Below, piece after piece: positions 38,822-64,000 of a DNA stretch of 64,000 nucleotides. The notes under the pieces are model-generated. The model was not told the origin of the DNA. It was given only the letters and a program-made list of their open reading frames with translations, and made no database searches. The stretch is from the IMG/VR virus record IMGVR_UViG_3300015371_000003, positions 1 through 64,000 of that record; one strand, written 5' to 3'. This DNA comes from a virus. The position numbers and the translations under genes are program-made. How positions within the stretch are numbered: position 1 is the first letter of the stretch; the number at the start of each line of letters is the position of its first letter.

Positions 38822-39659
38822 GACTGGTGTTGAAACGCGGCACGGATCAAATCGTGACGTTGACGGGGTTGCGAGCGACCGATACCCAAAGCTATTTGAA
38901 TACCGCAACGGTCAAGGGGACGCTGTTGGATCGGGGCCAACCGATCCCGGCGCTCAAAGATATCCCGATGACCTACGTGCCGGAGAGCAATGGCGATTAT
39001 GAGTGGCTGATTCTCGCGTCCCAATCGATGCTCCAAAAAAACGTGGAGTATTCACTGGTGGTGGTTGCACAGCAGGGGAGCTTGAACTACCGGACCACGA
39101 GTCCGGTGACGGTGGAGGACTGATGAGTACCAAGCCTTCCATCCCACCACGCAAGAAAAAGAAGTCCAAGTTCATTGACGTGCTGAGGGCCACGCGTTTT
39201 CCCAAGCACGGGTTGCGGGGCGGGCAAGAAGTCCCAATGGATATTGACAAGATCAACGCTTCTCTCGACGCGGCGAATAAAAAGGAGTAGGTGATGCCTG
39301 CATACGGAACAGCGACTCCACAAACGCAGACGGCGGGCTGGCCGCAGGTCGTGTGGAACGATGAAGCGGTGGCGGCGTCGGGAAAGAGTCTCGCCATCGG
39401 CATGCGACGGAATTCGAATATGCCGAATTGCCTCTCCGTGGAAGTGATCTTTGCGTCCAGTCCGGGGACGTTTGGGGTGGATCTGGAAACCGCCGATACG
39501 GATCAAGACAAGTACTACACGGTCAAAGCCTCGTTGAGCACGGTGAACGCACAGTTTGCGGGGCGCATCGAGGCCGCCAATGTGGTGGCGAAATTTGCTC
39601 GACTCAAGATGACCTCGATCACGAATGCGTCCGTGCATGTGACCGCTCGGATCTTCTGA
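38818..39659 (+). other. three small genes, probably structural/assembly (38818-39123, 39123-39290, 39291-39659)
   Basis: Coupled to the preceding structural gene; the first and third are beta-rich. Confidence 0.55.
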
Positions 39660-40192
39660 TGTTCGCAGCCGTCCTAAAGTTTGACCCGGCACAGCCCCGC
39701 GATGCCAAAGGGCGGTGGGTTGATGAGGAGGGCACGACACACGTCGGTGCGTTTGTCGAGTTGTATCATGGGACCAGTAAACTGCGGGCCAACAAGATTC
39801 TCAAGAAGGGGTTGAAAATTCGAGCGGTGGCGAAGCAGACGATGGGTGGGGATCCGGAGTCGAGTCGTGATTACATCTGGCTTGCCAAACGCATGGAGTC
39901 AGCCAGACGATACTCGGAGATGCACATCAATCCAACGGTACTAAAGGTGCTTTTGCCGGTGACGGAGTACGAGGAGTTGCGACGGCTTCAGACGGGGCCA
40001 GATTCTGTCTGGACGAAGCAATCTATTCCGGCTAAGCATATCAGTTTGTTCAATCTGCAAGCAATTGCACAAAAAGGAGCGGATATGGCGTTGAAAATCC
40101 TGAAAAAAGCGGAGGCTCCGGCCCCCACTGTGAAAGCCGAGAAGCCTCCGGATTACGTGCGAATCCTGAAAGGCAAAAAAGGAGCCTCTTGA
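39659..40192 (+). CDS. ADP-ribosyltransferase-like (Tpt1/PARP-type) protein with N-terminal tag
   Basis: KFDPAQPRDAKGRW, then LYHGTS...ILKKGL...YIWLA....ARRY...VLKV...IPAKHI. Confidence 0.65.
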   Translation: MFAAVLKFDPAQPRDAKGRWVDEEGTTHVGAFVELYHGTSKLRANKILKKGLKIRAVAKQTMGGDPESSRDYIWLAKRMESARRYSEMHINPTVLKVLLPVTEYEELRRLQTGPDSVWTKQSIPAKHISLFNLQAIAQKGADMALKILKKAEAPAPTVKAEKPPDYVRILKGKKGAS

Positions 40193-40332
40193 CAAACGCC
40201 CCACGCTCATGCTACTGTGGTGAACAGGCGACAGGAGTGTCGAGCACAACCGGCGCAAGGTAAGTTGACAAACTTCCGGATAGGTGCTACACTCGTTGTT
40301 GGTTGCAGTTCAACTCAATGGAGTGAGAGCAC

Positions 40333-42312
40333 ATGGAGTTTGTTTCCTTCGGATTCACGAACGATGAGGCGGCTGGTTCCCCGGAACTATTGGGGGGCAA
40401 GGGCGCGGGCCTCTTGTGGCTGTCACGGCAAGGGGTGCCGGTGCCACCCGGATTCGTGATTCCTACGTCCGTCTGGGCGGAGTACGACAAAAAGCCGAAG
40501 TCCACGATGAAGGCGATTGCCAAGGCATTGCCGGTCTATCTGAAGCAACTCGACGCCTACTTCGGGTACCGTCCGCTTCTTTCCGTCCGCTCGGGTGCCC
40601 GTGTCTCGTGCCCCGGCATGATGGATACGATCCTCAACGTGGGGATCGACGGCGATACCACGGCGGAATGGCTCAAGCGGTTGGGTCCGACGTGCTTCGG
40701 GGATAGCTTCAAGCGGCTGGTCCAGATGTACGGGTCCGTCGTCAAGGGGCTTCGCAAGGAAATCTTCGACGGGGATCTGAAGACGGCCCTCGACGTGTAT
40801 CAGGCCAAAACGGAGCAGGCGTTTCCGGACGCTGAAGCCCAACTCCTTGGAGCCATCGAAGCGGTGTTCAAGTCGTGGGATAACGACCGGGCGGAGGAGT
40901 ACCGCAAGATGCACGGGTACGACCGGGCGTGGGGAACGGCGGTCACGGTGCAAGCGATGGTCTTCGGGAATCTGAACGACCAGAGCGGAACCGGCGTGCT
41001 GTTCACGCGCAACCCGAATACCGGCGACAACGAAGTCACGGGCGAATATCTCCGCAACGCGCAGGGGGAAGATATCGTGGCCGGGATCCGGACCCCGGAG
41101 CAGTTGCACGAGTTGCCGTTTGATTTCGGCGTGCCCTTGCATTCGGATCTTCTGGATCTGGTCAAGAAACTCGAAACGCTCAAGCGGGAAATGCTCGACA
41201 TCGAATTCACGATTCAGAACGGCAAGCTGTATCTCTTGCAGGTTCGCAGTGGCAAGCGCACGGCTATTGCCGCCCTGAAGATTGCGGTGGATCTGACGAA
41301 GCAGGGGTTGATCGATGCTCAAACAGCGGTGAGCCGGGTATCGCCCCGTGAATTCGATTTGGCGCAGGAAACGATACTGGATCCGGCGTTTACGACGGTC
41401 CCGGCATTTCAGGGGATCGGAGCCAGCAACGGGATCGTCAGCGGCGTGCCGGTGTTCACGAAGGAAGACGCCATCGAAAGCAAGGTGCCCTGCATCCTCG
41501 TGCGAGAAGAAACGACGCCGGAGGATATCAAGGGAATGAATGCGGCGGCGGGCGTGCTGACGATGAAGGGGGGCTTCACGTCGCATGCGGCGGTGGTGGC
41601 CCGTCAGATGAATCGGGCGTGCGTCGTCGGGCTGGAGCAGTCGGTGGAAGCGTTTACGAATGTCGAAGTCATCAGCCTTGACGGAGCCACGGGCCGGGTG
41701 TGGACCGAAAAGGTGCCGGTCATCAGCGGGCAGACCAACGGCGTGGTCAAGGATTTCACGGCAATGGTCTACTCGACACTGAACGGGGTCATCCCGATTG
41801 TGTTCGACGTGCCCACGGTGCCGGTCAACGAAGCGTTGCTCTATCTGGGGGATCAGATTCTGCATCCGGAGCAGGCGATTCAGACGGTGTTGCTCTCGTT
41901 GTCAAAGGTGCAGCGGCTGTATCTGGATCTGGTCCCAAGCGAGGAGGAATCACGGTTCCTCAAGCTGGTGGCGGCTCACAAGGTGACGGAGCGGTTTCTG
42001 GAAGCCTTGTCTCAGGTGCTGCCGAAGCATCACCCGCTGTTTTCTCGGTTGGTGGTGGTGGTCAAGCCGGGAGTGACCGTGGCGTTCTCGCACATGGTGG
42101 CGGGCGCGGATCTGCGGTCCCTCGTGCTGTCGGATACGGAAGTGATTCTGGACGGCGTGGATACGCTGGACCCGGCGATTCAGCGGGTGCTGGCGTGGAA
42201 GCTGGCGCAGGGGCTGTCGGCGGTGTCTATCGGCGCGTATGTGCCGGAGGCCAAGTCCATGTTGAGCGTGTCTCAAGCGTTGCAATTGATTGCCAACGGG
42301 AAGGGGGCATGA
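40333..42312 (+). CDS. PPDK-like dikinase (ATP-grasp plus phospho-His domain) with non-PPDK C-terminus
   Basis: LGGKG, SVRSGA..SCPGMMDT, QGEDIVAG, DIEFT, LQVR, TTPEDI, GGFTSHAAVVAR; no pyruvate-binding TIM barrel. Confidence 0.9.
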   Translation: MEFVSFGFTNDEAAGSPELLGGKGAGLLWLSRQGVPVPPGFVIPTSVWAEYDKKPKSTMKAIAKALPVYLKQLDAYFGYRPLLSVRSGARVSCPGMMDTILNVGIDGDTTAEWLKRLGPTCFGDSFKRLVQMYGSVVKGLRKEIFDGDLKTALDVYQAKTEQAFPDAEAQLLGAIEAVFKSWDNDRAEEYRKMHGYDRAWGTAVTVQAMVFGNLNDQSGTGVLFTRNPNTGDNEVTGEYLRNAQGEDIVAGIRTPEQLHELPFDFGVPLHSDLLDLVKKLETLKREMLDIEFTIQNGKLYLLQVRSGKRTAIAALKIAVDLTKQGLIDAQTAVSRVSPREFDLAQETILDPAFTTVPAFQGIGASNGIVSGVPVFTKEDAIESKVPCILVREETTPEDIKGMNAAAGVLTMKGGFTSHAAVVARQMNRACVVGLEQSVEAFTNVEVISLDGATGRVWTEKVPVISGQTNGVVKDFTAMVYSTLNGVIPIVFDVPTVPVNEALLYLGDQILHPEQAIQTVLLSLSKVQRLYLDLVPSEEESRFLKLVAAHKVTERFLEALSQVLPKHHPLFSRLVVVVKPGVTVAFSHMVAGADLRSLVLSDTEVILDGVDTLDPAIQRVLAWKLAQGLSAVSIGAYVPEAKSMLSVSQALQLIANGKGA

Positions 42313-42572
42313 TGGCTCTAAGCATTGGGGTGTCAGTCGGGAGTAAGATAGATATTGGCGGGCATGTTCTTCAGGTGAAATCACTCGCCCCACCGAATAT
42401 CGTGGTCATCACGATAGATCGTGGGGAGGAGATTGTCATCAGTGAGGGCAAGTCGGTGGAAATTCTGCCGGGGGTCAAGGTGCAATCAGGCTCCGGCGGC
42501 AACCGGCTGGCCTTCCATGCAGCGAAGTCGATTCGGATTTCACGGATGGGGGAAGCCTTTCAAAAGGGTTGA
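42309..42572 (+). CDS. CsrA/RsmA-like protein (divergent, with internal insertion)
   Basis: MALSIGVSVGSKIDIG... and RLAFHAAKSIRISR resemble CsrA MLILTRRVGE.L.IG and VRIG..APK.V.V.R. Confidence 0.55.
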   Translation: MMALSIGVSVGSKIDIGGHVLQVKSLAPPNIVVITIDRGEEIVISEGKSVEILPGVKVQSGSGGNRLAFHAAKSIRISRMGEAFQKG

Positions 42573-42576
42573 ACAG

Positions 42577-42903
42577 ATGCAGATCAGTCCTAAAGTCATG
42601 CGCGTGCTCCAAGCGGAGAAGATTCCTGCTGAGGAACTGTACCGCATGCTGGATGACGTGGCGTTCACGTCGATTCGTGGATGCAACCGGCGGTACTTCC
42701 AGTGGTTGTTTCTCGTGAAGGATAATGTCCTTCAGGATATGCAGCGGCTGGATCTGGTGCAAGTCGGGAAAGGCCAGAACCGCATGCTGGAGGAGCACGA
42801 AGCATGCGACGGCGAAGGCTGTCGGGAGTGCGGGTGGGTAGGCAGTATTTCACGGGCCGTAAACGACGTGACGGCCACGATGATCCAGTCCGCAGGGTTT
42901 TGA
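42577..42903 (+). CDS. hypothetical protein with C-terminal Cys motif
   Basis: CDGEGCRECGW. Confidence 0.6.
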   Translation: MQISPKVMRVLQAEKIPAEELYRMLDDVAFTSIRGCNRRYFQWLFLVKDNVLQDMQRLDLVQVGKGQNRMLEEHEACDGEGCRECGWVGSISRAVNDVTATMIQSAGF

Positions 42904-42955
42904 CAAACGACCAGTAGTTGTGCGATACTAGATACCTCAAAGGAGTGAGGCTCAG

Positions 42956-43489
42956 ATGGCTTTAGGGCAGTTACGGCTACCAGTGAACAAGCGGCAGTAC
43001 TTCGTGGTGACGGGAGGCCCGTTCCACGAGTGTCCGCCCAACATGCAGGGCGTCAAGATGGCGAAGGAAATCAAGCAGGCGTGTGCCGTGGACATTCCCA
43101 CGGCTGATTTCCAGACGCCGGATCGGTTGGTGCTCTATCGTGGGCTGCACAAAGCCCTCGATTTGGTGCTGGCCGGGGAACCCCTGTATGTGGGGTGCAT
43201 GGGCGGCAAGGGGCGGACGGGGCTGTTTCTGGCCGTGCTGGTCAAAGCCTTCGGGGTCAAGAAACCGGTGGAATTCGTGCGGGCGAACTACTATGCCCAT
43301 GCGGTGGAGACGGATGAGCAAATGGCGTTCGTCCGGAAGTTCACCATTACGCCCCCGATGCGGCGGAAGATCAAGCGGCTTCGGCGGTGGTCGTGGCTCC
43401 GGTTCTGGAAGCGGAACCTGACCCGTCTCCCGGCTCCGGAAGGGGAGAAGCAGGCACCGGCCATGCGGAAGGTGGCCGGAGGCCGGTGA
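42956..43489 (+). CDS. PTP/dual-specificity phosphatase-like protein
   Basis: IPTADF.TP, YVGCMGGKGRTG (CX5R), AVET.EQ. Confidence 0.85.
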   Translation: MALGQLRLPVNKRQYFVVTGGPFHECPPNMQGVKMAKEIKQACAVDIPTADFQTPDRLVLYRGLHKALDLVLAGEPLYVGCMGGKGRTGLFLAVLVKAFGVKKPVEFVRANYYAHAVETDEQMAFVRKFTITPPMRRKIKRLRRWSWLRFWKRNLTRLPAPEGEKQAPAMRKVAGGR

Positions 43490-43559
43490 TTTGACAAACG
43501 CCCACGGTTGGGTGTATACTGGTTGAGTCAGTGGGGAGTCTCAAGGGAGTGAGCAGATC

Positions 43560-44675
43560 ATGAAGTTTCGTCCGACCAACACATTGGCGTATTTCAATGC
43601 CGCGCCCCAGACGCATCTGCATGATCTGTCGGATCTGCCGATTGCGGTGCTGGCGGAGGCCACGAAGAAGTACCGGGAGACGTGCGGCACTGTCTCGCCC
43701 AATGACGGCGCGGTGACGTTCTACACGCTGAACCATTGTGCGTCGATTGTGCGAAAGCTGTTCACGCCCCATGAAACGCTGCCGGAGTGGGCGCGGGTCA
43801 TCATGCAGACCTATACGACCGTTTGCATGGATCAGGGTGAGCGGATGCTGCACTACATCCTGAGTATCACCACACGGGAAATGCGTCATGTGTCCTCCTC
43901 GAAAGAGGCGCTGTGGAACGGCATGACGAAAGAGGCCGGAGCAGCGGTCGCACAGTTCATCAAGGGGAACTGCGCCAACGGGGAAGATTCGGCGGTGTCG
44001 AAGTACATGAACAATCCGCCGAATGCGACGGTGGGGCAGTACATCGGCGGCATGGCGTACGGGTTCTGGAATGGGTGGGGGAAGTACACCCCGGAGACAA
44101 TGGAGAATTGGAGCGGCGGCTACGGTGGCCCGACGTGGGCACTTGTGGCGGAAGCGGCTCGGGCCATGCTGACGGGCACCACGTCAATGGAAATGCTGGT
44201 GGACACGGGCTATACGCTGGCCCACAACGGTGGTCCCATTTTCAACAAGGGGATGATGTACACCCACTACGACAGTCATTTCCTGACGATTCTGGATTTA
44301 CAGCGGGCGGGTCAGATGCTGGATCTGCTGACCGGGACCAATTTGCATGGGATCAAGAAGACGCCTGAAGCGGTGGCGGCGGTGGCAGCGATTCAGCAAC
44401 CCGAGGCACAGCAGGCGATTGAAACGTTTCTGCCGGGAGAGGTGATTTTCAAGGGGTACATCGATTGGAAGCTGGTGGATGATCTTCGCCCGGATAAGTC
44501 GAAGAACCCCGGCAAGTATCACGCGCAGATTCACGCGCAGGCGCAGCCTACGGCGACGGTGAAGCCGAAGCCGAAGACGATCAAGTTTCACGGGAAGAAG
44601 GCCAAGGCAGTCGGGGAATTTCTGGTCTATCCCAAGCAGACGGTCAAGATTATCGAACGGACGGGGGGCAAGTGA
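43560..44675 (+). CDS. hypothetical protein (YGG..W, D....LAHNGGPIFNKG motifs)
   Basis: Own promoter and hairpin SD; conserved-looking polar motifs, function unknown. Confidence 0.7.
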   Translation: MKFRPTNTLAYFNAAPQTHLHDLSDLPIAVLAEATKKYRETCGTVSPNDGAVTFYTLNHCASIVRKLFTPHETLPEWARVIMQTYTTVCMDQGERMLHYILSITTREMRHVSSSKEALWNGMTKEAGAAVAQFIKGNCANGEDSAVSKYMNNPPNATVGQYIGGMAYGFWNGWGKYTPETMENWSGGYGGPTWALVAEAARAMLTGTTSMEMLVDTGYTLAHNGGPIFNKGMMYTHYDSHFLTILDLQRAGQMLDLLTGTNLHGIKKTPEAVAAVAAIQQPEAQQAIETFLPGEVIFKGYIDWKLVDDLRPDKSKNPGKYHAQIHAQAQPTATVKPKPKTIKFHGKKAKAVGEFLVYPKQTVKIIERTGGK

Positions 44676-45406
44676 TGGCGTGGGAAGACTGGAAGTCCAA
44701 GAAGCAGTCGGCGGACACGGCGTTCGCAGGCACGGCGTACTCGGTGCGGTGTTACGAGTCACACCCCGTGCTCAAGATCGGCAAGGGCAGGCTCTATGGG
44801 GGTAGTGCTCGCAACCCGGTGAAGGAGATGGACGTGTATGTGGTCCTTCAGAACGGGGATCAGGGCGGGCGGCAGTCGGATCCGTGGGACAAGCAGGCAG
44901 TCACGGAAATCTACTACGGCATCAACGACATGCACGCGCCGTCCAACGTGGCCCGGTTCAAGAAGCTGGTGACGTGGATTTGCACTCAATTGCAGGCGGG
45001 CAAGAAGGTCCACGTCGGCTGTATCGGTGGGCATGGACGAACCGGCACGGTGCTCTCCGCCATCATCGCGGAGGCGTTGAAGGAGAAGGATGCGATCCAG
45101 TGGGTGCGGAAGCACTACTGCAAGAAGGCGGTGGAGTCCAAGGATCAAGTCGCGTTCCTGATGAAGCATTACGGGGTGACGCAGGCCAAGGCGACGAAGG
45201 ATTACACGGGGTTGCTCCGGCGAGACAGCATTGAACCGGTCAGGACGGCGGGTCAAATGCCGTTGCTCCAACCGTCGTGGGTGAACACCCCGGTGGGTCA
45301 GGTGAAGTCAGGGACCACGAAGCGGGCGGTGCCGGAGAAGGCCACGAAGTCGTATGGCCCCATGGCGTCCGTCCGGAGTCTGTGGAAGCCCAAGCGGGGG
45401 ATTTGA
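44675..45406 (+). CDS. PTP/dual-specificity phosphatase-like protein
   Basis: INDMHAP, HVGCIGGHGRTG (CX5R), AVES.DQ. Confidence 0.85.
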   Translation: MAWEDWKSKKQSADTAFAGTAYSVRCYESHPVLKIGKGRLYGGSARNPVKEMDVYVVLQNGDQGGRQSDPWDKQAVTEIYYGINDMHAPSNVARFKKLVTWICTQLQAGKKVHVGCIGGHGRTGTVLSAIIAEALKEKDAIQWVRKHYCKKAVESKDQVAFLMKHYGVTQAKATKDYTGLLRRDSIEPVRTAGQMPLLQPSWVNTPVGQVKSGTTKRAVPEKATKSYGPMASVRSLWKPKRGI

Positions 45407-45474
45407 CAAATCCCTAGCCCGGTGCTATACTGGATGCCGGTCGAGTAAACTTTAGCTCAAGGGAGTGGGCAGCA

Positions 45475-46434: not shown

Positions 46435-47185
46435 TGATCTGCCGGGATGCGATCCGATTGGAGTCGGCGGCGGCACAGCACGAACTGAAGCTGCTCGAAT
46501 CGATGCAGGTCGGGGGCACCCGGCGAGGGGTGCTTCTTCCGGCCCTCTCCGTGGGGGTGGAGTGGACCCTGATGACGGCCAAGCCGGGGTACTGGGAATT
46601 CGACGGCACGTTTTTCGGTCAGCCGTTCTACCGGCTGGTCATTCGCACGGATGCGGGGTTGCTGACGCTCGAAGTGCAGGAGGCCAAGTAATGGATCTGG
46701 CGTATTTCGCGGCGGATACCCTTGGGGTGACGCTCTACCAAATTGGGGACACGTTGACGGCCAACGAGGTGCGCCAGACGGCACTCGGGCCATGGACGCT
46801 GGATCTGCCGATGGATGTGGAGTCCGATATCCTCTCCGGCACTGAGCTAGGCTTCTGGGTCACGCTTGGCAAGCAATTGCACCTCTACGTGGTCGTGCGG
46901 GAGAAGGAGAACTGGCTGTTCGTCCTGAACCACACGAAGCTGGCGGACTGCGAGCAACAGACCCTGTTCGAAGCCCAGACCATCATCGGACGGCTGAAGG
47001 AATTCAAACCGGCTATTGTGGGCGTGTTTGAGTGGGGTGACAACGAGTGGACCCAAGTCAAGTATGATGGGGGCGGGAGCGAGCATGCTGACGATCTGGA
47101 CGAAGGGTCTTCCGAACAAGGTACTGCAAGCGTTCTCCCCGGTGCTGCGTTCGGTACCGCATCTGCCCGTCCACGTCGTCAGTGA
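46431..47185 (+). other. two hypothetical genes (46431-46691, 46691-47185)
   Basis: Coupled ORFs upstream of the polymerase. Confidence 0.55.
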
Positions 47186-50276: not shown

Positions 50277-50662
50277 AGGGCATCCACAGCATGACCTTGG
50301 CAGAGCGAATCATAGCTAAGACTAAAGTGAACGAGAACGGGTGTCGGCTGTGGCAGGAGTCCTTACTGAAGGACGGCTATGCGCTGATTCGGTACAAAGG
50401 GAAAAAAATTACCGTGCATCGGGCGGCGTGGATGGCTTTCAAAGGTCCAATTCCAGACGGCATGTCGGTGTTGCATTCGTGTGATATTCGACATTGCACG
50501 GCTGAGGAGCATTTGTTTTTAGGAACCTATGCTGATAACTCGAAAGATGCTGTGACGAAAGGGAGACAAAAGAATTTATTTCCGAGTGGTGATCTGCATC
50601 CGAATAGGATTAAAAAACTCAAGAAATTGCAGCGGTTGACAAGACTGAGAGAGTTGGGTTAG
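50273..50662 (+). mobile_element. free-standing HNH endonuclease
   Basis: GC.LW...DGY...VHRAAW...GPIPDG..VLHSCD...C....HLFLGT..DN..D...KGR; lower GC; ATGA overlap with pol stop. Confidence 0.88.
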
Positions 50663-50688
50663 ACTAGGTTCCTGTCAATGGAGTGATG

Positions 50689-53462: not shown

Positions 53463-53859
53463 AATTGTCATCATGGTGATCGGCTTTTTCATCGGGTATT
53501 TTATCGGGTGGCGGTTTCTGCGGATCATTCGGTAGGAGGCGGCGAATGGGGTGGCGCATTCGGAGCATGACCAAACGCGATTTCCACGGACGCTCCAAGT
53601 ACTGGTCCTTCAGCGTAGGCTGGACGTGGTTGGAACATGCGGACGTGTTCACGAACTATGATCGGGAGCACATGCTGTTGCCGCCCGATGGCGTGTGGGA
53701 GGAAGTGCAGGACTACTAGTTTATCAAGAGGCCACTGATGATAGTGGCCTATCTTTTTTCTCAGACCCACCCCCCAACTCTCCGTTGCAATTGAGTGCAG
53801 CAGTCCCGTATACTGGTGTCCGTCTGAACTACAACCGATTGATTTGACAAGAGGGCCGT

Positions 53860-55854: not shown

Positions 55855-55855
55855 G

Positions 55856-57373
55856 ATGCCGACGCTCGATCTGCGGACGTATGTGCTGTTGGAGCGGGCC
55901 TTTGTCCGGAGGCTCCAACGGTCATGGCGGCAGCAGTCGGCTCCGCTGTACGCGAAGATTGCCCAAGCCTGCAACGACCACAAATGGGATGAAGCCCGCC
56001 GTCTTGTCACCGATCTGGACATGACGGAGGTCGGCACCGAGAACCGCGAGTGGATCACGTACATGCTCCGGTCGTGTGCCGTCTTCGGAGCCGGTACCGT
56101 CTCCAAGAAGAAACCGAGTTTCGTGGGCGTGGGCAGCTTCGATACCTTCCTGAAGCAGACCACGAACAATTTCCTGCAATACCTCGAATTGACCGCCACC
56201 GCTCAGATCCAAGCGGAAGCGTTGCAATCAATTGCCGAAGATGAGGCTAAGACCAAAGCCGCGATGTTGAAGGCGGCATGGGATGAATCCCAACACCCCC
56301 GTGACAAGGAAGGACAGTTCACGGAGGCCGGGGCCGGAACGGAGGCCAAGTCGGGGGATCCCGAAGGCAGTGGCCCCGCCCGTGTGGAATGGAACAAGCG
56401 CAACAAGGCGGTGATGGAAGCGACTGATGTCTATATTGACACCAGAGAAGCCCATCGAGCTTTAGTGGAGCGATTGAACGCTGAATATCAGGCGGAAACC
56501 CCGATGGGGTATCCAGAGGCCGGGTATGCGGCGTACAAGAAATCCCAAGCCACATTGGAGCAGGCCAACCAAGCGTTGGCACAGGCCGAAACTGCGCTGA
56601 AGCAACAAGAACCGCTGATGCGGAAGGAAATCGTCCAGAATCTGGCGACAGACGTAGCCAGTGATTTGGGCGTTGATCCACGTTTGATTGACGTGGTGGA
56701 CGAAGCTCCGCATCCGTTTACGGTTGGAGATAAGCAATTTACCGAGGCGGGGCACTACGATCCGACTACCAAACGCATTCAGTTGAATTCCAACAATATC
56801 TCGTATGCGAATGCCCCCGGAGTCAAGGGGGTGGTAGCCCATGAAATTTCTCATGCGATCTATCACCAGTTGAAGATTGCGGCGGAGGAGGAATTTCAAC
56901 GGTATCTCGTCAAAGCTACGACCGAGGATGCCTATACCCCGTGGTTTCATGAGCGGTTTACCACCGATCCCCATAAAATTGGCCGTCAGGTGAAGCCCGA
57001 GTACGCCAAGGAAATGGCCGAGGAATTTCCGGCGTCTACCGTGCTGGCCCGGTTGAGTGGGGGAGATATTTTCTCCGGTATCACTGATGAGATGATTGCT
57101 GAAAATGGGCATAGTCGGTATGCCAAATCGTACTGGGCCGCTGAAGCCGAGAAACGGATAGGGCTGCGGAATTACCGTAACGCCATCAATGAAACGATAG
57201 CCGAGATTACGCGGTGGTTGGCCTACCCCCGGTCATGGGAGGAGGAGAAGCCACCGGATCTGGATTCTCCGTGGGTCAAGTTGACAGAATCCATGTTGGG
57301 ATGGCATCAACGACAGCAAGCTGAACAGGCGAGGCAGTTTGCCGCGTCTTTGGCGTCGGGGTTCCGAGCATGA
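55856..57373 (+). CDS. post-portal head-associated protein (MuF-position) with tag and zincin metallopeptidase domain
   Basis: WDESQHPRDKEGQF; GHYDP...VAHEISHAIY...NETIAE. Confidence 0.65.
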   Translation: MPTLDLRTYVLLERAFVRRLQRSWRQQSAPLYAKIAQACNDHKWDEARRLVTDLDMTEVGTENREWITYMLRSCAVFGAGTVSKKKPSFVGVGSFDTFLKQTTNNFLQYLELTATAQIQAEALQSIAEDEAKTKAAMLKAAWDESQHPRDKEGQFTEAGAGTEAKSGDPEGSGPARVEWNKRNKAVMEATDVYIDTREAHRALVERLNAEYQAETPMGYPEAGYAAYKKSQATLEQANQALAQAETALKQQEPLMRKEIVQNLATDVASDLGVDPRLIDVVDEAPHPFTVGDKQFTEAGHYDPTTKRIQLNSNNISYANAPGVKGVVAHEISHAIYHQLKIAAEEEFQRYLVKATTEDAYTPWFHERFTTDPHKIGRQVKPEYAKEMAEEFPASTVLARLSGGDIFSGITDEMIAENGHSRYAKSYWAAEAEKRIGLRNYRNAINETIAEITRWLAYPRSWEEEKPPDLDSPWVKLTESMLGWHQRQQAEQARQFAASLASGFRA

Positions 57374-59055
57374 TCCTGCCTGAACCTATCACCCTCAACG
57401 GTCGGACGGGTACCGTCGCCTATCTGGACGCGCAGTGGCATCCAGTCCCGGCGGATCAGGCGACGATGGCGCGAGTCCTGTTCGATGATGGGGGGACTGG
57501 TTTCTTTCAGGTGCAACCGATTGCCAAATCCACTGAAGATGCGGTAAAATGGGATGAGTCCAAACACCCCCGCGATAAAGAGGGGCAATTTACCGAAGGA
57601 GTCGGAGATGGACGAAGTGGTAAGACAACCCCGGAATCTGACAGAGGAGCAGGAGGCAGCGGAGGAGTTGGCGTATCGACGCCCCCCAAAGGGGTGGAAG
57701 CCGCAGGTCAAAAACGCCCCCCCGCCGTCCCCGAAGTCCAAGCCGTAGCGCGGGCGTATAACGCGCAGCACGGACTGCCCCCGGTCGAGCACGGCTATGC
57801 GACGGTGAATGAGGCCCGAGCAGGGGCCATTGCCGATGCCTATGACGCGCTTCCGGTGGATGATACGGATAATCCAGCGGTGCGGGAGGCGTATGCGGCC
57901 CTGAGTCGAGAGATTCAGGAGCAGTGGGATTTCATCACCTCTCACGGGGTGACGTTCGAACCGTGGACTGGAGAGGGACAGCCGTATCAGAATTCGCCGG
58001 AGATGGTGGCGGACATTCAGAAGAACCACCACCTGTATTTCTTCACGGGTGGGGAGCCGCATCCGTTGTTGGGGGCGATTGATCCGGCGACGGGGCTGTC
58101 CATGAACGACAAACTGCGAGCAGTCCATGACTACTTTGGGCATGCCGCAGGCGGCTATGGATTCGGAGCGAGAGGCGAGGAGAATGCGTGGCGGGCGCAT
58201 TCCCAGATGTTCAGCGCCCAAGCGAGACGGGCGATGACGACGGAGACACGCGGGCAGAATTCGTGGGTGAATTTCGGGCGACAGAACTACACGCCTGAGG
58301 GCATCTACAAGAATATTCCCGCCGCCGAGCGTCCGTATGCGGTGCAGAAGGTGGCGATTCTCCCCGATGTGTACGTGGTCTTGGAGCATGGTGGAGTCCT
58401 GAAATGGGAGGAGTCACAGCATCCACGGGTGCCGGGAGGGGAGCATGGCGGAGAGTTTACGCGAGTCGCCATTACGAGTCAGCGACCGGCGGATGACCCC
58501 GGCCATCAGACCAATCGGGAAGTGTTTGAGCACATGCGCGTGTTTGCAGGCCGATTGGCAGCCATCCCCGGCGTGACCAACGTGTCGGTGAAGCCCGGAG
58601 TCGGGGGGTGGGACGGCGGAGCCGAATCGATGTGGCAAGTGTTCTATCGGGGGAATGGTGAAGCTACGCGGTTGGTGGCGATGACGGCCAAGCACTTCAA
58701 TCAGGATGCGGTGTTGATCCTTAAGAAGTGTCAGGGTGGAGCGGATTGTCAGCCCGCTACGGAATTGCATTTCTCCAAGGGGATTGGCGGGAAGGTTCGT
58801 GTGGGCGTCGAGAAAGTACTGGTTGAGCATAAGATTAAGGGCTGGACGTGGATGAAGCGCGACGGACGGACCATTCTTCGAATGGTGGCGATTCCCGAAG
58901 AAGGGGATGATCCGGTCACGCATCAGCAGACGACAGCGGTGATTAGTCAGCAGTTGCGGGATAAGGGCTTGATGAACAAACGGCACGTGCAAAAGGTGGC
59001 CGTGAGTATGATGCGGCGTGAAGGACCAAACAGTTATGACCGAATCCTTGGATAA
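57370..59055 (+). CDS. polyvalent protein with two tags
   Basis: KWDESKHPRDKEGQF; NDKLRAVHDYFGH...RGEENAW...TETRGQNSW domain; KWEESQHPR; second unknown domain. Confidence 0.65.
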   Translation: MILPEPITLNGRTGTVAYLDAQWHPVPADQATMARVLFDDGGTGFFQVQPIAKSTEDAVKWDESKHPRDKEGQFTEGVGDGRSGKTTPESDRGAGGSGGVGVSTPPKGVEAAGQKRPPAVPEVQAVARAYNAQHGLPPVEHGYATVNEARAGAIADAYDALPVDDTDNPAVREAYAALSREIQEQWDFITSHGVTFEPWTGEGQPYQNSPEMVADIQKNHHLYFFTGGEPHPLLGAIDPATGLSMNDKLRAVHDYFGHAAGGYGFGARGEENAWRAHSQMFSAQARRAMTTETRGQNSWVNFGRQNYTPEGIYKNIPAAERPYAVQKVAILPDVYVVLEHGGVLKWEESQHPRVPGGEHGGEFTRVAITSQRPADDPGHQTNREVFEHMRVFAGRLAAIPGVTNVSVKPGVGGWDGGAESMWQVFYRGNGEATRLVAMTAKHFNQDAVLILKKCQGGADCQPATELHFSKGIGGKVRVGVEKVLVEHKIKGWTWMKRDGRTILRMVAIPEEGDDPVTHQQTTAVISQQLRDKGLMNKRHVQKVAVSMMRREGPNSYDRILG

Positions 59056-60232
59056 GGCGTTACAGGAATTGGAACAGCTTGTGGCAGAAGAAGCCGCGTC
59101 ATCGGACACGGGTGAAGATTTGCCAGAGTATGATCCGCTGCCTGAAGACGATGACGATGTGTCAGTCACGTTTCTGGCTGGTCCTGCGGTGAAATGGGAT
59201 CCATCCAAGCACCCGCGTGACAAAGAGGGGCAGTTCACGGACACCGTAGGCACCATCCGAGGAGTGGTTCGCACCACCGCTGAACAGGCCCGCCGGGATC
59301 TGGTCGCACTCGGGAAGAAGGTGGAGCAGTTAGACCACCGTCATGCGAAAGCCGCCGAGGAATCGCGGGTAGCGTGGGCGGCGTTCATGAAAGACGCACG
59401 GGAGCGGAAACGTCCCCTGAAGATTGACGGGGCGGCGGCGAAGAAATTGCCGTCCTACAAAGCCGCGCAAGCCGCCGATGCCAAGGTCATCGCCATTTCC
59501 GAGGAGACATCCCGAGTCGCCAGAGAAGTCAACAAAGAAGCGTTACGACAACTCGTGGTGCCGGAACGGGAGCGGTCCCTTGTGGAGTTTCTGGTTCCCG
59601 AGGGGCAATTGAATCCGGATCCACGGATTGAAGCTGGAATTGGCGACCACGCGAAGCGAGCGTTGGATGTCTTCCGCAAGTACGATGGGTCCGGGGAGTT
59701 GATGGGCGTCCCCATTCCACCGGGGAAAGAAGAACAGTTCAAAGAGATTTTTGGGGACGTGGAGTTTGAACATCTGCCGGATGGAAGTACGTGGGTGACG
59801 AAGAAGCTCCGGTTGACGCGGGCACCGGCTGGTGCGCGGGCCAATGCGTCGGCGTTTGGGGTACAAATTGGTGGGACTCGTGAGTTGGAGCGGACCATCT
59901 ATCACGAGGTGGCGCACCATGTGGAGTTTGCCAACTCGGACATTTATCAGGCCGCTGTGGATCTGCGGGCTTCGCTTGCCAGCGAGTCTACGCCCAAGTC
60001 CTTGAATGACTTGAAGGGCGTGGGTGGGTATGGACCCGAAGAAATTGCGCTGCCGGGAAAATTTCTCGATTCGTATGTGGGCAAGGTCTATCCGGAGGAT
60101 GCACGGGCCACAGAAATGTTGTCCACCGGGATGGAGTACTATCTGACGGACCCGATTCGATTTGCCCGAGAAGCCCCCGAGCATTTCAAGTTTGTGTGGA
60201 ACGTGATGCACGGGAAGTATCGGAGGAAGTAA
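59036..60232 (+). CDS. tagged zincin-like metallopeptidase
   Basis: KWDPSKHPRDKEGQF; IYHEVAHHVE; YVGKVY...TEMLSTGME. Confidence 0.65.
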   Translation: MTESLDKALQELEQLVAEEAASSDTGEDLPEYDPLPEDDDDVSVTFLAGPAVKWDPSKHPRDKEGQFTDTVGTIRGVVRTTAEQARRDLVALGKKVEQLDHRHAKAAEESRVAWAAFMKDARERKRPLKIDGAAAKKLPSYKAAQAADAKVIAISEETSRVAREVNKEALRQLVVPERERSLVEFLVPEGQLNPDPRIEAGIGDHAKRALDVFRKYDGSGELMGVPIPPGKEEQFKEIFGDVEFEHLPDGSTWVTKKLRLTRAPAGARANASAFGVQIGGTRELERTIYHEVAHHVEFANSDIYQAAVDLRASLASESTPKSLNDLKGVGGYGPEEIALPGKFLDSYVGKVYPEDARATEMLSTGMEYYLTDPIRFAREAPEHFKFVWNVMHGKYRRK

Positions 60233-60459
60233 TGGTGGAAGTCGAAGTGTACGGCGAACGAGCACGGTGCCAAAACGGGGTGTGGACGGCGGAGAGTCAG
60301 GCGCTGACGGATCTGCTGAACGCTCCGTGGAATCAGCCGGATGCCTTCCGGTATCGGCTGGATCCGGATATCGATGCGGCGGAGCACGTCGTGAAGACGA
60401 TGGGCGCACAGGTGATTTCCACCGAACCCCCGCCCACTGAACCCGGCGTGGTGTACTGA
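60232..60459 (+). CDS. small acidic protein (candidate immunity partner)
   Basis: TAATG-coupled to the peptidase. Confidence 0.55.
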   Translation: MVEVEVYGERARCQNGVWTAESQALTDLLNAPWNQPDAFRYRLDPDIDAAEHVVKTMGAQVISTEPPPTEPGVVY

Positions 60460-60502
60460 CGAAACCTTAGGAGTTGCACTTGAGTGCAACGGAGCAACGC
60501 CG

Positions 60503-62311
60503 ATGCGGTCGTACCGAGACATTCTCCGGGGGGCATTGCGTTACGTCCACATCCTCAAGTGGGATGAGTCTAAAATTCACCGTAATCCTGCCGGGAGTCC
60601 GGGTAGTTCCGGGGGGCAGTTTGCGAAGATGGGGATGCGGGGGAGTGCGTATGGCACGGCTCCGGTGCCCTCCTCTGAAGCTATTGCCCGTATGCCAAGT
60701 GGGGCACCGGAAGCGATGGCCCACATGCGACGGGCGGGCCTGATCGCACAGCAGGATCGGGAGAAGTATCAGGAATTAGCCGCAGCGGAATCCCAAGCGG
60801 TGCGTCAAGGCGGCGGCGTGGCCGGATGGCGGTCGAGGGATAAAGCCGCAGAGCGGTACAAGGATGTGCTGATCAACCGCCCCCGTGCGGAGAATTTCGA
60901 ACCACCTCCTCCCCCACCCCCAGAACCCACACCAGTACTCACGTCTGGCAGTGCCACCAGTGTCGTGAAGAAATTGGGCGGCAGTTCGAATGCCTGCTAC
61001 GTCGTCCAGATGGAGGATGGTTCCAAAGCCTTCTTCAAACCGGAAGCCGGGGAGACGTGGGAAGCCGGGTTCTGCAACAACGACATTTCCACCTACATCA
61101 CCAATAAAGACTTTTCACTGGCGGAGCGGGAAGCCACCGCACATGAAGTGTCTATCGCGTTGGGGTTTGGGGAGTTGGTGCCGGAAACCCATCTCCGTGA
61201 ACACTTCGACGTGCCGGGGATCGATCTAGCCACCGATGATGAATCCGGCGGCGGTTACGATGAAGACTACGTGCGGAGCCTCTACAACCAGTACCATGAA
61301 AAAGCCCAAGAAAAGGCTTTTGATGAGGCTGGTGAGGAGATGGCGAATCAGTACTATGATGCTCAGCAGGAGCATTTGAGGGATGTCAAGAATCGCGCCG
61401 AGGAAATGACGGATATCTGGAATGAGGTAATTAAGGAATTTCCAGATGGTCCGGACTACGGATCACAGTCGGCGTTGCAAGAACATCCTCGTCTCCCGCT
61501 TGGGTCACAGCACTTCAGCCGCCCCCCGCAGGTCGGGGTGGTTGATCCACTGGACGTGTTGAAAGAAGCGGATGTGGACATCTCGGCGGCGATGAACAAT
61601 GAGGAGCGAGAACGGGTTGCGGACGTGTTCCGTGATCGGTTGAAAGCCGGTCATCAGGAACTAGGCGATGTGGACGAGGAAGCCGCCAAAGACGATCTGG
61701 ATCGGGATCAGTGGTACGAGGATCACCAAAATACCGAGGCACGGTTAATCGAAAGCAAAATTCAGTCGTTTGATTCGTGGCGGCATAGTCAGGGTTACGA
61801 CAGCGGCGATCAAGGAGGGGGCGGCAACGTCTTCAAGAATTCCGAGGCTCCTCATCCTCACGGCGGATCCCTGCAACGGTGGTTAAACAGCGGAGGCCGC
61901 GATGGGGATATGACCCATGAGGAGGCCACGCAATTTGCGGTGCTCGATTATGTGTTGGGCACGATGGATCGGCACGGCAACAACATCATGTTCTCCGGTG
62001 GGAAAGCCTACGCCATTGATAACGGTTATGCCTTCCCCGGCCCGGATACGCCCGATGGGTTTACTTACCGGTCAGATGCCGTACGGGAGTGGATGGGGGA
62101 TGACCAACACCGCGAAGTCCCCGAAAGCACCCGGAATGAAATCTTGGGAGCGATGAATCGGACGGACTGGAAAGCCTTGGTAGACCGTCACCCGAGCATG
62201 AGCCGGGAAGAACGGCAGTCGTTTCTGGACCGGGTGGACAAGATGAAAGAAGCCCTGTCCTACGCCGAGGGGTTGTCCACCCTCTGGCATGACCAGCAAT
62301 TGATGTATTGA
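60503..62311 (+). CDS. tagged HipA/PI3-PI4-kinase-like protein kinase
   Basis: LGGSSN...AFFKP...EREATA...VPET...GSLQ...LDYVLGTMDRHGNN...AIDNGYAFP; long acidic insertion. Confidence 0.8.
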   Translation: MRSYRDILRGALRYVHILKWDESKIHRNPAGSPGSSGGQFAKMGMRGSAYGTAPVPSSEAIARMPSGAPEAMAHMRRAGLIAQQDREKYQELAAAESQAVRQGGGVAGWRSRDKAAERYKDVLINRPRAENFEPPPPPPPEPTPVLTSGSATSVVKKLGGSSNACYVVQMEDGSKAFFKPEAGETWEAGFCNNDISTYITNKDFSLAEREATAHEVSIALGFGELVPETHLREHFDVPGIDLATDDESGGGYDEDYVRSLYNQYHEKAQEKAFDEAGEEMANQYYDAQQEHLRDVKNRAEEMTDIWNEVIKEFPDGPDYGSQSALQEHPRLPLGSQHFSRPPQVGVVDPLDVLKEADVDISAAMNNEERERVADVFRDRLKAGHQELGDVDEEAAKDDLDRDQWYEDHQNTEARLIESKIQSFDSWRHSQGYDSGDQGGGGNVFKNSEAPHPHGGSLQRWLNSGGRDGDMTHEEATQFAVLDYVLGTMDRHGNNIMFSGGKAYAIDNGYAFPGPDTPDGFTYRSDAVREWMGDDQHREVPESTRNEILGAMNRTDWKALVDRHPSMSREERQSFLDRVDKMKEALSYAEGLSTLWHDQQLMY

Positions 62312-62363
62312 AACTTGACATATCCACCATTTGGTGGTAAACTTACTACATGGGGGGTGTGTG

Positions 62364-62588
62364 ATGCACGTGGAATTGCTGGATGTTTCGTCAGGAAATG
62401 AGGAAGTGTACGGCACCGTCCGGATGGACAACGGACAGGTGGTAGTCGAAGGGGACGTGCCCGCCCGTGTCAAACGAGATATCGAATTCGAGCGGCGGCA
62501 CACCGATGTCGGGGACGAAGCGTTTCTTCTGCGCCTTGAACAGCGGGTGTTCACAGGCCGGTATCTGCGGGCGCGATTCGTGAAATAA
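62364..62588 (+). CDS. small protein with its own promoter (candidate antitoxin)
   Basis: TTGACA(62315)-17-TAAACT right after the kinase stop. Confidence 0.55.
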   Translation: MHVELLDVSSGNEEVYGTVRMDNGQVVVEGDVPARVKRDIEFERRHTDVGDEAFLLRLEQRVFTGRYLRARFVK

Positions 62589-62594
62589 TCCCCC

Positions 62595-64000
62595 ATGCTC
62601 CGTATCCACCCGCCGAAGGTGCAACCCATTGCACCCTCCCTTCTTGAAGTCCTGAAGTTTGATCCGAGTGAACCTCGTGATCCTCACGGACGATGGACGA
62701 CTTTCGGCGCGTCCATTCGAGTTGGGGACCGAGAGATTGCCGTAGTCAAACCAGCCCGCGCCAGAGACGATCAACTGGTCCCCCTGAACGTCGTCGCATT
62801 TGATACCGAATTTCAGCGGGAGCAGGGGTTTTATCTGGGCGTCGGTGGAATTGGGGGGATCGGCACCCGCTACCAACGTTTCGGGGACTTCATTGCCTCT
62901 CATGACAGCATCGAAGCGGCGGAAGTGTCCGTGCAGGAGAACGGGCGCGTGGGTTTCACCAACGGACGCCACCGGTATGCGTGGCTCCGTGATCAAGGAT
63001 TGACCACCATTCCCGTAGCCATGACCCCGGAGTCAGTCAGGAACGCCAAGAAGCATGGGTATCTGGCGGCGGTCAAGCTGGCGTGGGATGAGAGCCAACC
63101 TCGTGACGCTAAAGGACGGTGGGCAAAAGGATCAGCAGAACCTCCACCAGTCGGTCCACGTATTGGATTTGTGGGGCCGGATGGGAAGGAGCATGTTGGA
63201 CGTAAGACGGGGGGATTAGGAGGGTATTCCGAAGATCACACGGACACGGCTCGCCGGTTACTAGATAAGGAATACTCCACGGCACTGAGTCAGGCGCAAG
63301 CACGTGGTGGGGATTACCCAAATGCCATTCGTTTGATGTTGGAACAAGGAGCCATTCGGTATTGGGTGCGGAACGGGGAGATTGCGCTGCATTTTCAAGC
63401 AGGCCACCCAAAGACCGTCGAACACGTCATTCAATTTCTGCATGACAATTTTCAGGATGGGGATCGCATTTATATCGACATCGAAGGGGCCGAACCGCAT
63501 GTGCATTTTTTCGATAATGTCGGAGCCGCGAATCGTACTATTCGTCAGACAAAGCCACTCAAGAAGGTGGCGCAAGAGCATTCCTACGGCAACACCCAGA
63601 TTCAAATTGCTCCGACCAGTGCCGCCGCACTTTCTCTGAATATGGCCCGTGCTGCCATCCGCGATGAACATTGCATGGCAACCGGCAAGGATGTGGATCC
63701 GAACCATGTGACGGTGCGCTTCGGCCTCCTGAACGATGATCTGGATGGTCTGCGGTCGTTTATTGTCCGTCAACAGTCCTTCGAAGCTGAGGTCGGAGAG
63801 ATTGAACTATTCCCGGCCAGTGAGCACAGCGATGGAGCCGTGCCCGTCGTGGCCCGCATCGTCAGTCCCGAGTTGCATGCCATCGAAGCGGAGATAGGGC
63901 AGTATGCCGACTTCAAGGATAAGAATTTCCCCGAGTACAAACCCCATTGCACCCTTGCCTACGTCCACCCGGACAAAGCGGATTACTACCGTGATCTGTT
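62595..64000 (+). CDS. polyvalent protein, truncated and absent from the ORF track: tag, ParB-like, tag, unknown, 2H phosphoesterase (Acb1-like)
   Basis: My translation: KFDPSEPRDPHGRW; FTNGRHRYAWL..QG...IPV; WDESQPRDAKGRW; HVTVRFG (63705) and YKPHCTLAY (63945); open to the window end. Confidence 0.8.
   Translation, partial: MLRIHPPKVQPIAPSLLEVLKFDPSEPRDPHGRWTTFGASIRVGDREIAVVKPARARDDQLVPLNVVAFDTEFQREQGFYLGVGGIGGIGTRYQRFGDFIASHDSIEAAEVSVQENGRVGFTNGRHRYAWLRDQGLTTIPVAMTPESVRNAKKHGYLAAVKLAWDESQPRDAKGRWAKGSAEPPPVGPRIGFVGPDGKEHVGRKTGGLGGYSEDHTDTARRLLDKEYSTALSQAQARGGDYPNAIRLMLEQGAIRYWVRNGEIALHFQAGHPKTVEHVIQFLHDNFQDGDRIYIDIEGAEPHVHFFDNVGAANRTIRQTKPLKKVAQEHSYGNTQIQIAPTSAAALSLNMARAAIRDEHCMATGKDVDPNHVTVRFGLLNDDLDGLRSFIVRQQSFEAEVGEIELFPASEHSDGAVPVVARIVSPELHAIEAEIGQYADFKDKNFPEYKPHCTLAYVHPDKADYYRDL

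Follow-up and report, generated by a model that had tools for sequence, protein, structure and literature searches.

What is a short peptide, repeated in front of one unrelated enzyme domain after another, doing next to the portal gene of a tailed phage? The question is raised by a 64,000-nt stretch at the start of a 116,229-bp viral contig, referred to here as the window. Proteins that are packed in phage heads and injected ahead of gene expression are the first weapons against host defences and are largely unknown beyond a few model phages. A conserved cargo header would provide a sequence rule for finds in metagenomes, a handle on loading and release and possibly a particle-loading tool. 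Judged from sequence, the tag probably marks 'polyvalent' enzyme modules that tailed phages deliver from the head, with packaging and delivery being steps that we infer.

Tag copies in the viral contig

A six-frame regular-expression search and a profile search of the whole contig identified eight copies of the tag, all on the plus strand and in frame with long ORFs. They score 29-46 bits against the tag profile, and the strict expression matches six times in the window compared with zero matches in each of 300 triplet shuffles. An earlier note on this DNA had pointed out eight copies, and the searches bear out all of them in their places. Three further, diverged tags are found on the same strand beyond the window end, near 64149, 66318 and 67191 of the contig. 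Ten of the 11 tags (eight strong and three diverged) are located between the portal and protease genes.

Genes of the tagged block

The block is flanked on one side by the portal gene (53860-55854, plus strand, as are all ORFs of the window described here), which matches the portal family phrog_12 (E=4.5e-20) and whose product aligns over 98% of its length with the portal of Stenotrophomonas phage DLP5 (44.6% identity). ORF A (55838-57373) encodes an N-terminal MuF domain (aa 10-136), a tag (aa 148-161; WDESQHPRDKEGQF, 56279-56320, 45.8 bits and also found by the regular expression) and a zincin module with HEISH at 56840-56854 and weak Zn_peptidase_2 and SprT-like matches over the HExxH region. 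An alternative ORF A start at ATG 55856 is possible. By its coordinates, ORF B (57370-59055) overlaps ORF A at ATGA. It consists of a small β leader (aa 1-48), tag 1 (WDESKHPRDKEGQF, 57550-57591, 44.2 bits), a disordered Gly-rich spacer (aa 78-112), a domain carrying the HDYFGH motif (aa 113-335), tag 2 with a Gly-rich insert (WEESQHPRVPGGEHGGEF, 58405-58458, 28.8 bits) and an α/β C-domain (aa 364-561), and it matches phrog_3170, with 275 homologues.

ORF C (59018-60232) combines a leader, a tag (WDPSKHPRDKEGQF, 59195-59236, 41.9 bits), a helical region and a second zincin module with HEVAH at 59903-59917, its PHROG matches being confined to the C-terminal module. Here too, an alternative start (ATG 59036) is possible. 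ORF D (60503-62311) starts with an 18-residue leader followed by a tag with a Gly-rich insert (WDESKIHRNPAGSPGSSGGQF, 60560-60622, 33.4 bits) and a PI3/PI4-kinase-like module (Pfam PI3_PI4_kinase, E=3.7e-8; the score of 34 bits exceeds the cut-off of 27.1); it also shows a weak SCO1664-family match. An 85-aa ORF (62331-62588) lies in the frame of ORF E, one TAA and two codons ahead of its ATG, and may be a separate gene, a read-through leader or the product of a recent nonsense change.

ORF E (1135 aa) begins at 62595, leaves the window at 64000 and ends at 66002 of the contig. Based on Pfam and PHROG matches, its order is: class II tag (FDPSEPRDPHGRW, 62658-62696, 31.5 bits), ParB-like domain, tag (WDESQPRDAKGRW, 63084-63122, 32.8 bits), unknown domain, 2H/Acb1-like domain (aa 369-462), diverged tag (about aa 515-535), second ParB-like domain (phrog_2859), MuF core (aa 736-888) and C-terminal region. 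The earlier note had the last ORF end in the 2H domain, which the continuation into the second ParB-like domain and MuF core corrects. The domains it had placed behind the tags, namely ART-like, two HExxH, HDYFGH, kinase-like, ParB-like and 2H, are all found.

On its other side, the block is flanked by genes for an XkdF protease (68917-69516 of the contig), a scaffold (69527-70621 of the contig) and the capsid. The scaffold gene gave no match to the tag profile. A 190-residue N-terminal extension of the protease ORF was rejected as non-coding, with 247 homologues being about 195 aa long and starting at the equivalent of Met189.

The remaining strong copy belongs to an ART-like cargo gene (39659-40192) encoding a 6-residue leader, a class II tag (FDPAQPRDAKGRW, 39680-39718, 29.3 bits) and a Tpt1/KptA-type module, whose homologues carry the JGI name RNA:NAD 2'-phosphotransferase. 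Its ATG at 39659 overlaps the stop of the upstream ORF (TGATG) and the tag is therefore located 6 residues from the N-terminus. The gene is free-standing and 16 kb from the head block. In one relative (P0142), the same ART-like module is found inside a protein that starts with a MuF N-domain; the module has moved 16 kb away in our phage, retaining an intact tag.

The tagged block as a split MuF gene

The two ends of the block correspond to the two ends of a single protein in DLP5. ORF A aa 10-136 is 35% identical to DLP5 gp3 aa 1-127 (E=9e-21) and ORF E aa 736-888 is 52% identical to the gp3 MuF core (E=2e-53). PHROG minor head and head morphogenesis families match the same region of ORF E; the Pfam PF04233 match on its own scores 19.4 bits, under the cut-off of 29.6. 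MuF is one gene in DLP5, whereas here the N-domain opens ORF A and the core closes ORF E. These alignments indicate that the tagged genes are pieces of one head gene, MuF, opened between N-domain and core, where tag-headed modules now take up about 8.5 kb. With the N-domain directly after the portal and the core about 8.5 kb downstream, unlike the usual single post-portal gene, the MuF gene is split and therefore a derived form of the MuF / SPP1 gp7 family.

Four relatives (P0041, P0102, P0049 and P0142) carry the same modules in one chain of 1269-1972 aa, differing in order and number and with break points at tags. In our phage, the module string is spread over at least eight separate ORFs, each of which keeps its own header, and the split ORFs each start 6-60 residues ahead of a tag.

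Sequence and structure of the tag

The tag is about 20 residues long and consists of two hydrophobic residues, [WFY]-D-[EP]-[SDN]-x-(H)-P-R, a loop and G-[RKQ]-[FW], with a Gly-rich segment after most tags. The loop is 3 or 8 residues long, the 8-residue class making up 13% of tags elsewhere. The Gly-rich insertions that had been described for two copies are present, between PR and G-x-F of the tags starting at 58405 and 60560. Lys directly precedes the aromatic residue in six of the eight copies; in the remaining pair it is found two or three residues further towards the N-terminus. The hydrophobic-Lys step that the earlier note regarded as a possible protease site is thus seen locally and does not hold generally: Lys occupies position -1 in 29% of 691 tags elsewhere.

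Several positions are coupled. The pairs W...F (247) and [YF]...W (252) are frequent compared with W...W (46), and Glu together with His (389) compares with Pro without His (190). Both tag classes occur together within one protein in 52 of 150 cases. Codon comparison showed that synonymous sites vary freely among the tag copies of this genome. Because of this free variation, the coupling of positions and the restriction of the loop to 3 or 8 residues, selection is seen to act on the tag as a protein.

AlphaFold2 (AF2) predicts a local fold for the tag alone with moderate confidence (pLDDT about 82 over the core). In the ORF B model, the HDYFGH domain exceeds pLDDT 90, while both tags, at about 58-62, form lower-confidence linkers between well-folded domains. 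Further, 98 of 111 HDYFGH domains have no tag. In Planktothrix phage Pag-Yong1, a protein named 'large polyvalent protein' has the HDYFGH domain and is tagless. The tag is thus separable from the folded domains it precedes. In a Foldseek search of the PDB with the modelled ORF B, the HDYFGH domain had no match and the C-domain had weak ferredoxin-like ones. A profile search of the PDB gave a single weak match (E=0.1), to gp113, the baseplate hub of phage 7-7-1 (9rku), which was dismissed as chance; it covers the second motif half only, in a gpD-type hub. A modelled complex of the XkdF protease and the tag scored 0.00 in both runs, which counts neither way.

Distribution of the tag

At E<=1e-3, the tag profile matched 4374 protein clusters, in which a single protein can have as many as 21 tags. 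Median values are 249 aa for tag spacing and residue 40 for the position of the first tag, and the last tag is always followed by a module. The tag therefore heads unrelated modules as a portable unit, as the earlier note had proposed. The modules include ARTs, GNATs, MuF, topoisomerase IB, Acb1, zeta toxin, portal and XkdF, and free tag ORFs include lysozyme and M23 peptidase modules. Genomic context was drawn from IMG/VR and genome loci. On 69 viral contigs, most neighbors of tag ORFs encode MuF, portal, prohead protease, terminase or capsid; the profile scan and domain tabulation suggested earlier thus tie the tag to head-morphogenesis genes. At the DNA level, the tag pattern matched 95 stretches in IMG/VR compared with 48 in 596 Gb of bacterial genomes. 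Other polyvalent proteins are tagless or carry other junction motifs, and the junction motifs before the same domain differ by phage lineage and are largely mutually exclusive. The rival motifs are GGPGSGNFGHxGRPGxxGGS, FNxCHxPxGSxxGGxF and FNxNHDxxGRF. Among cultured phages, candidate tag carriers are Streptomyces phage Gilgamesh, in gp48, and Rhizobium phage RHph_N28_2, in the ORF that follows the portal.

Other search routes returned little. When 50,697 phage records were searched by tblastn with a tag of 25 residues, there were 5 marginal matches, the motif being too short for tblastn, and tblastn with a six-tag protein gave nothing useful. No model for the tag was found in Pfam or NCBIfam, and no paper on it was found in a literature search with the motif written several ways.

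Possible functions of the tag

We tentatively favor the tag as a portable recognition header on head cargo, possibly also trimmed by a protease, and put this at a little under an even chance. The broader idea, that it is a general transferable capsid-loading address, read by a conserved head component and choosing the proteins to be carried and injected, is more doubtful. In our model, the tag would be a small structured recognition peptide that a head-assembly component reads during procapsid formation. Each tagged module would enter the head, whether MuF-fused, portal-fused or free. Trimming of the tag or spacer may follow, by the prohead protease or by the zincins encoded alongside, with the T4 capsid targeting sequence as a model, and the cargo would leave the head together with the DNA.

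Some observations sit awkwardly with a header. The ART-like gene at 39.6 kb lies outside the head block. The occurrence of polyvalent proteins that are tagless or use other junction motifs indicates that not all of them require the tag. An address would be redundant in fusions of the types portal-tag-cargo, MuF-tag-cargo and tag-protease-tag, where a cut site appears more sensible. The tag might then be a recognition and cleavage site for a prohead protease of the XkdF/S78 type or for the co-encoded zincins, at which polyproteins are cut into individual enzymes, either within the head or once injected, the tag having no part in loading. In multi-domain chains, tags do separate one domain from the next. 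L014 has an XkdF protease domain (aa 429-558) with a tag on either side, at 409-427 and 553-580; L094 has the order protease-tag-kinase, and L111, L119 and L135 are portal-tag fusions. HExxH is found in 65 of 150 multi-tag proteins (43%), compared with about 8% expected, in line with the zincins proposed as polyvalent-protein processors by Iyer et al. 2017 (PMC5512222).

Nevertheless, we consider cleavage alone rather unlikely. A leader of at most three residues (MWDES...) is allowed in 17 of 196 tag ORFs and one of at most 30 residues in 88, leaving nothing to cut off. Because many ORFs start directly with the tag, inter-domain cutting alone is not its whole role. The intact tag on free-standing ORFs, including the one 16 kb away, the lack of a tag-profile match in the scaffold gene of this phage and the low general frequency of Lys at -1 also argue against it. 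Finally, about 14 constrained, coupled positions hold far more information than known prohead protease sites such as those of T4 gp21 and HK97 gp4. Processing is, however, compatible with the tag also being read as a header.

A passive joint, meaning a self-folding hairpin with a Gly-rich spacer that insulates modules or aids threading through portal and tail and is read by nothing, would agree with the moderately confident local AF2 fold, with the folded unit suggested by covariation and discrete loop length, and with the Gly-rich segment behind most tags. It gives no reason for an extreme N-terminal tag on single-module proteins or for the restriction to head-linked phage proteins, and polyvalent proteins with the same domains do without the tag; we regard it as quite improbable. 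The tag does more than join domains, as free ORFs retain it.

The possibility that the tag is a signal directed at the host after injection, binding a host factor or setting enzyme lifetime or location in the cell, would suit its N-terminal positions and its conservation in phages of hosts from Clostridia to Proteobacteria. We judge it very improbable: lineage-specific, largely exclusive junction motifs fit a reader encoded by the phage better than one common to all hosts, and portals and a prohead protease, which act in the producing cell, are tagged as well. Just as slim is the chance of a cassette-swap junction, a shared recombination sequence like the motifs before CdiA/Rhs variable toxin domains: relatives do shuffle the same modules with breaks at tags, but codons differ at most synonymous sites among copies, which leaves no stretch of DNA identity to recombine on and rules it out as a driver, and it is the protein sequence of the tag that is conserved among phages of several bacterial phyla.

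If the recognition header is a true address, the injected proteome of uncultured phages would become readable from sequence, with more than 4000 protein clusters already at hand, and about 20 added residues could load foreign proteins into phage heads. The phage described here is a good test case: its cargo already comes as single tagged genes, which can be individually deleted or retagged.

Comparison with known systems

Polyvalent proteins were described by Iyer, Burroughs, Anand, de Souza and Aravind (2017, J Bacteriol, PMC5512222) as unrelated enzyme domains, among them zincin peptidases, ARTs, ParB, kinases and MuF, encoded beside portal and head genes; packaging and injection were proposed, with a zincin or assemblin-type peptidase as processor. 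No junction motif is described in that text ('linker' and 'HPR' both occur 0 times). ORF B, ORF E and their relatives have at least two unrelated effector-type domains per chain, and the hallmark zincin, ART-like, MuF and ParB domains are found here in a head-gene neighborhood. The published proteins are strings of domains, whereas here at least eight ORFs each carry a header; some polyvalent proteins are tagless.

In MuF-fused polymorphic toxins (Zhang et al. 2012, PMC3482391; Jamet et al. 2017, PMC5576092), MuF carries a variable toxin into the head, with an N-terminal MuF, one C-terminal toxin and often an immunity gene; neither paper mentions the tag motif. MuF as a carrier is shared with our phage, and membership in the MuF / SPP1 gp7 family is indicated by the MuF core match of ORF E. 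Unlike in MuF toxins, the modules lie between the MuF halves and before a core near the ORF E C-terminus, and, at a first look, no immunity gene is evident.

The T4 capsid targeting sequence comprises about 10 N-terminal residues that bind the scaffold core and are removed by gp21. It likewise is a short peptide heading unrelated cargo in a phage with a prohead protease, and the idea of an address that doubles as a trim site is modelled on it. The two have no sequence likeness, and the tag is longer, more conserved, repeated per chain and present in many phage lineages; it is N-terminal or nearly so in many ORFs and also internal.

Encapsulin cargo-loading peptides are short, conserved and mostly C-terminal, follow a flexible linker and dock inside an HK97-fold shell on which the receptor site has been solved. 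By comparison, the tag is N-terminal to its module and its receptor is putative. What both systems share is a short conserved peptide with a flexible Gly-rich linker on unrelated enzymes, in connection with the lumen of an HK97-fold shell.

Conservation and anatomy of the tag

A six-frame regular-expression and profile search of the whole contig (116,229 bp; the window covers its first 64 kb) recovered in the window exactly the eight tag copies listed in the earlier note. All lie in frame on the + strand and score 29-46 bits, and the strict regular expression gave 6 matches compared with 0 in 300 triplet shuffles. Three further, diverged copies are located past the window end, at contig positions ~64149 (HWAESLHPRQPAGSSRGGEF), ~66318 (LKFNPNHGPDGRF) and ~67191 (LKFDESAVNRQPAGAPGSKGGEF). 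Synonymous sites mostly differ between the copies of this genome, which argues for selection at the peptide level. GC skew is positive almost throughout the window, suggesting that the + strand probably carries most genes. Three ORFs within contig positions 66237-68153 (locus L002, 4237-6153) have a common N-terminal leader, MP(I/L)T.G(F/L)T(T/S)R; among these, the ORF at 66768-67073 ends right after '...AEVLKFK', inside the start of a tag, and resembles a truncated paralogue.

A logo of 691 tags shows the core [WFY]-D-[EP]-[SDN]-x-(H)-P-R, a loop (3 residues in 82%, 8 residues in 13%) and G-[RKQ]-[FW]-[TAGS], followed by Gly-rich sequence. The N-terminal flank is hydrophobic at -4 and -3, with [KA] at -2 and [KDEA] at -1. 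Since Lys occupies -1 in only 29% of these tags, the hydrophobic-Lys protease site proposed from the window alone is a local habit. The two aromatic residues are coupled (W...F 247 and [YF]...W 252 versus W...W 46), and Glu at +2 occurs with His before Pro (389), Pro at +2 without it (190). In 52 of 150 cases a single protein contains both coupled classes, which means that lineage alone does not explain the coupling. When the tag was modelled alone with its alignment, AF2 gave a core pLDDT of ~82, a helical turn at D-E-S and an Arg bridged to the final Phe. Based on this model, the tag is probably a small structured unit with its two aromatics packed together.

The tag is not an integral part of the enzyme folds that it precedes. 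The AF2 model of ORF B (57370-59055; mean pLDDT 79) consists of a small beta leader (residues 1-48), a first tag (pLDDT ~58), a disordered segment (78-112), the HDYFGH domain (113-335, pLDDT >90) and a second tag (pLDDT ~60) adjoining a C-domain (364-561). The leader (57370-57513) is predicted to be four-stranded, with pLDDT about 50-75. Among 120 homologues, 98 of 111 HDYFGH domains have no upstream tag, and some are located at the very start of the protein. Some homologues carry other junction motifs, GGPGSGNFGHAGRPGxVGGS or EFNPCHxPxGSxxGGxF, seldom in the same protein as this tag. GGPGSGNFGHxGRPGxxGGS precedes the HDYFGH domain in other phages (library proteins P0161, P0164, P0167, P0172 and others) and co-occurs with the studied tag in only 1 of 150 cases. 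That lineages combine different, mostly exclusive junction motifs with the same domain suggests a phage-encoded tag reader rather than a universal host factor.

Distribution of the tag in phages and bacteria

A degenerate DNA pattern for WDES.HPRD..G was searched in IMG/VR and in 596 Gb of bacterial genomes. IMG/VR contained 95 matching stretches with 214 tags in total, and the translated matches also have the final aromatic residue, though the pattern did not require one. Only 48 bacterial stretches matched, 42 of which fit the tag profile; there, neighbours are prophage head genes mixed with housekeeping genes. At E<=1e-3, the profile, built from 148 tags, identified 4374 protein cluster representatives; 704 pass the stricter cut-off of E<=1e-10. 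The largest number of tags in one protein is 21, over 7334 residues. In the best 150 proteins, the first tag is found at median residue 40, median tag spacing is 249 residues, and the last tag always has a module after it. Cargo of multi-tag proteins includes ARTs, GNATs, MuF, topoisomerase IB, Acb1, zeta toxin, Mu-type portal and XkdF protease.

In 69 viral contigs, the genes up to two places away from a tag ORF are mostly those for MuF (8 of 105), portals (9), terminases (~10), prohead proteases (6) and capsid (3), and none of the top 25 neighbour families is a replication family. The tag is very probably a real, selected and portable header of head-linked cargo. The ORF that follows the portal gene of Rhizobium phage RHph_N28_2 (L099:5959-6480) probably starts at GTG 5959 instead of the annotated 6121, and the longer form has an 18-residue leader followed by the tag QFDPSKHPRGANGRF. 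Streptomyces phage Gilgamesh gp48 (L101:2979-16853; 4624 aa), encoded after a portal-MuF fusion gene, has one tag at residues 30-56.

A split MuF gene with inserted tagged modules

The portal gene (53860-55854; 44.6% identity to the portal of Stenotrophomonas phage DLP5) is followed by tagged ORFs A (55838-57373), B, C (59018-60232), D (60503-62311) and E (62595-66002). An XkdF-type prohead protease, a scaffold-like ORF and a capsid gene lie 3' of this block. The protease (contig 68917-69516, 199 aa) starts at Met189 of a long ORF, as judged from 247 homologues of ~195 aa. Between this protease and the last cargo gene is a 265-aa Pro/Gly-rich ORF with HPEHPIVLPP and PGIWGP repeats (contig 68108-68905; L002:6108-6905), which overlaps the upstream, spurious part of the long protease ORF.

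The domains downstream of the tags are as first described, save at two gene ends. ORF E, described in the earlier note as ending in a 2H phosphoesterase, extends to 66002 (1135 aa) and its terminal domain is a MuF core; for the ART-like gene, the start is ATG 39659, placing its tag 6 residues from the N-terminus. DLP5 has a single gene after the portal, gp3, encoding MuF and ParB. Its residues 1-127 align with ORF A residues 10-136 (E=9e-21) and residues 145-303 with ORF E residues 736-888 (52% identity, E=2e-53). Judged by these alignments, the MuF gene of this phage is interrupted at the linker between the halves, with tag-headed modules inserted. In relatives, the same pieces are joined in single chains: the MuF N-domain with the ORF B module and ORF E C-terminus (P0041), with the ORF E C-terminus (P0102), with ORF B (P0049) or with the ART-like module (P0142), which stands alone at 39.6 kb in this phage. 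The window thus represents a fragmented form of the block, in which every fragment begins 6-60 residues ahead of a tag. An 85-aa ORF (62331-62597), in frame with ORF E, ends in TAA two codons ahead of the ORF E ATG, and no ribosome-binding site is obvious; this ORF may be a leader domain severed by a nonsense change, or be read through.

Phage polyvalent and MuF-carried effectors are a known class. The header tag itself appears undescribed: the motif is not described in the papers on polyvalent proteins (PMC5512222) and MuF toxins (PMC5576092) or in the survey of polymorphic toxins (PMC3482391), and literature searches with several spellings found no paper. Neither Pfam-A nor NCBIfam has a model that matches segments made up of the tag alone or that repeats along proteins with several tags, and the PDB gave no convincing tag match. 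This phage displays the tag in unusually dissected form.

Other genes of the window

The family A DNA polymerase gene (47016-50276) contains an intein at aa 580-809 (Pfam Intein_splicing E=1.2e-10), which separates the exonuclease and polymerase parts. The 40333-45406 cluster encodes a PEP-utilising (PPDK-like) kinase (phrog_18609, E=1e-155), two dual-specificity-phosphatase-like proteins labelled 'thymidylate synthase' in PHROGs and an unknown protein (phrog_20946), and could represent a nucleotide or DNA modification pathway. The gene at 34517-38821, a short way before the solitary tagged ART-like gene, encodes a 1434-aa protein with no family match and a high content of Thr, Gly, Val, Ala and Ser; this protein looks fibre- or adhesin-like.

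A possible loading address or cleavage site

We tentatively propose that the tag serves as a loading address. It is retained on free-standing ORFs, and among 196 tag ORFs delimited by an upstream stop, the leader has at most 3 residues in 17 and at most 30 in 88. Gastranaerophilales and Clostridia prophage ORFs start with MWDES, MTWDES or MGTWDES followed by lysozyme or M23 peptidase, enzymes expected to exit the virion during entry. Such ORFs contain no part requiring removal by cutting, which speaks against the tag being only a cut site, a reading we consider unlikely. In favour of a processing role, tags flank an XkdF protease domain on both sides (L014), the order protease-tag-kinase occurs (L094), and multi-tag proteins contain HExxH modules more often than expected (65/150 versus ~8%). 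Fusions of the tag to portals homologous to that of this phage (L111, L119, L135) also fit processing. A loading address and processing can be compatible roles by analogy with phage T4, whose capsid targeting sequence combines both.
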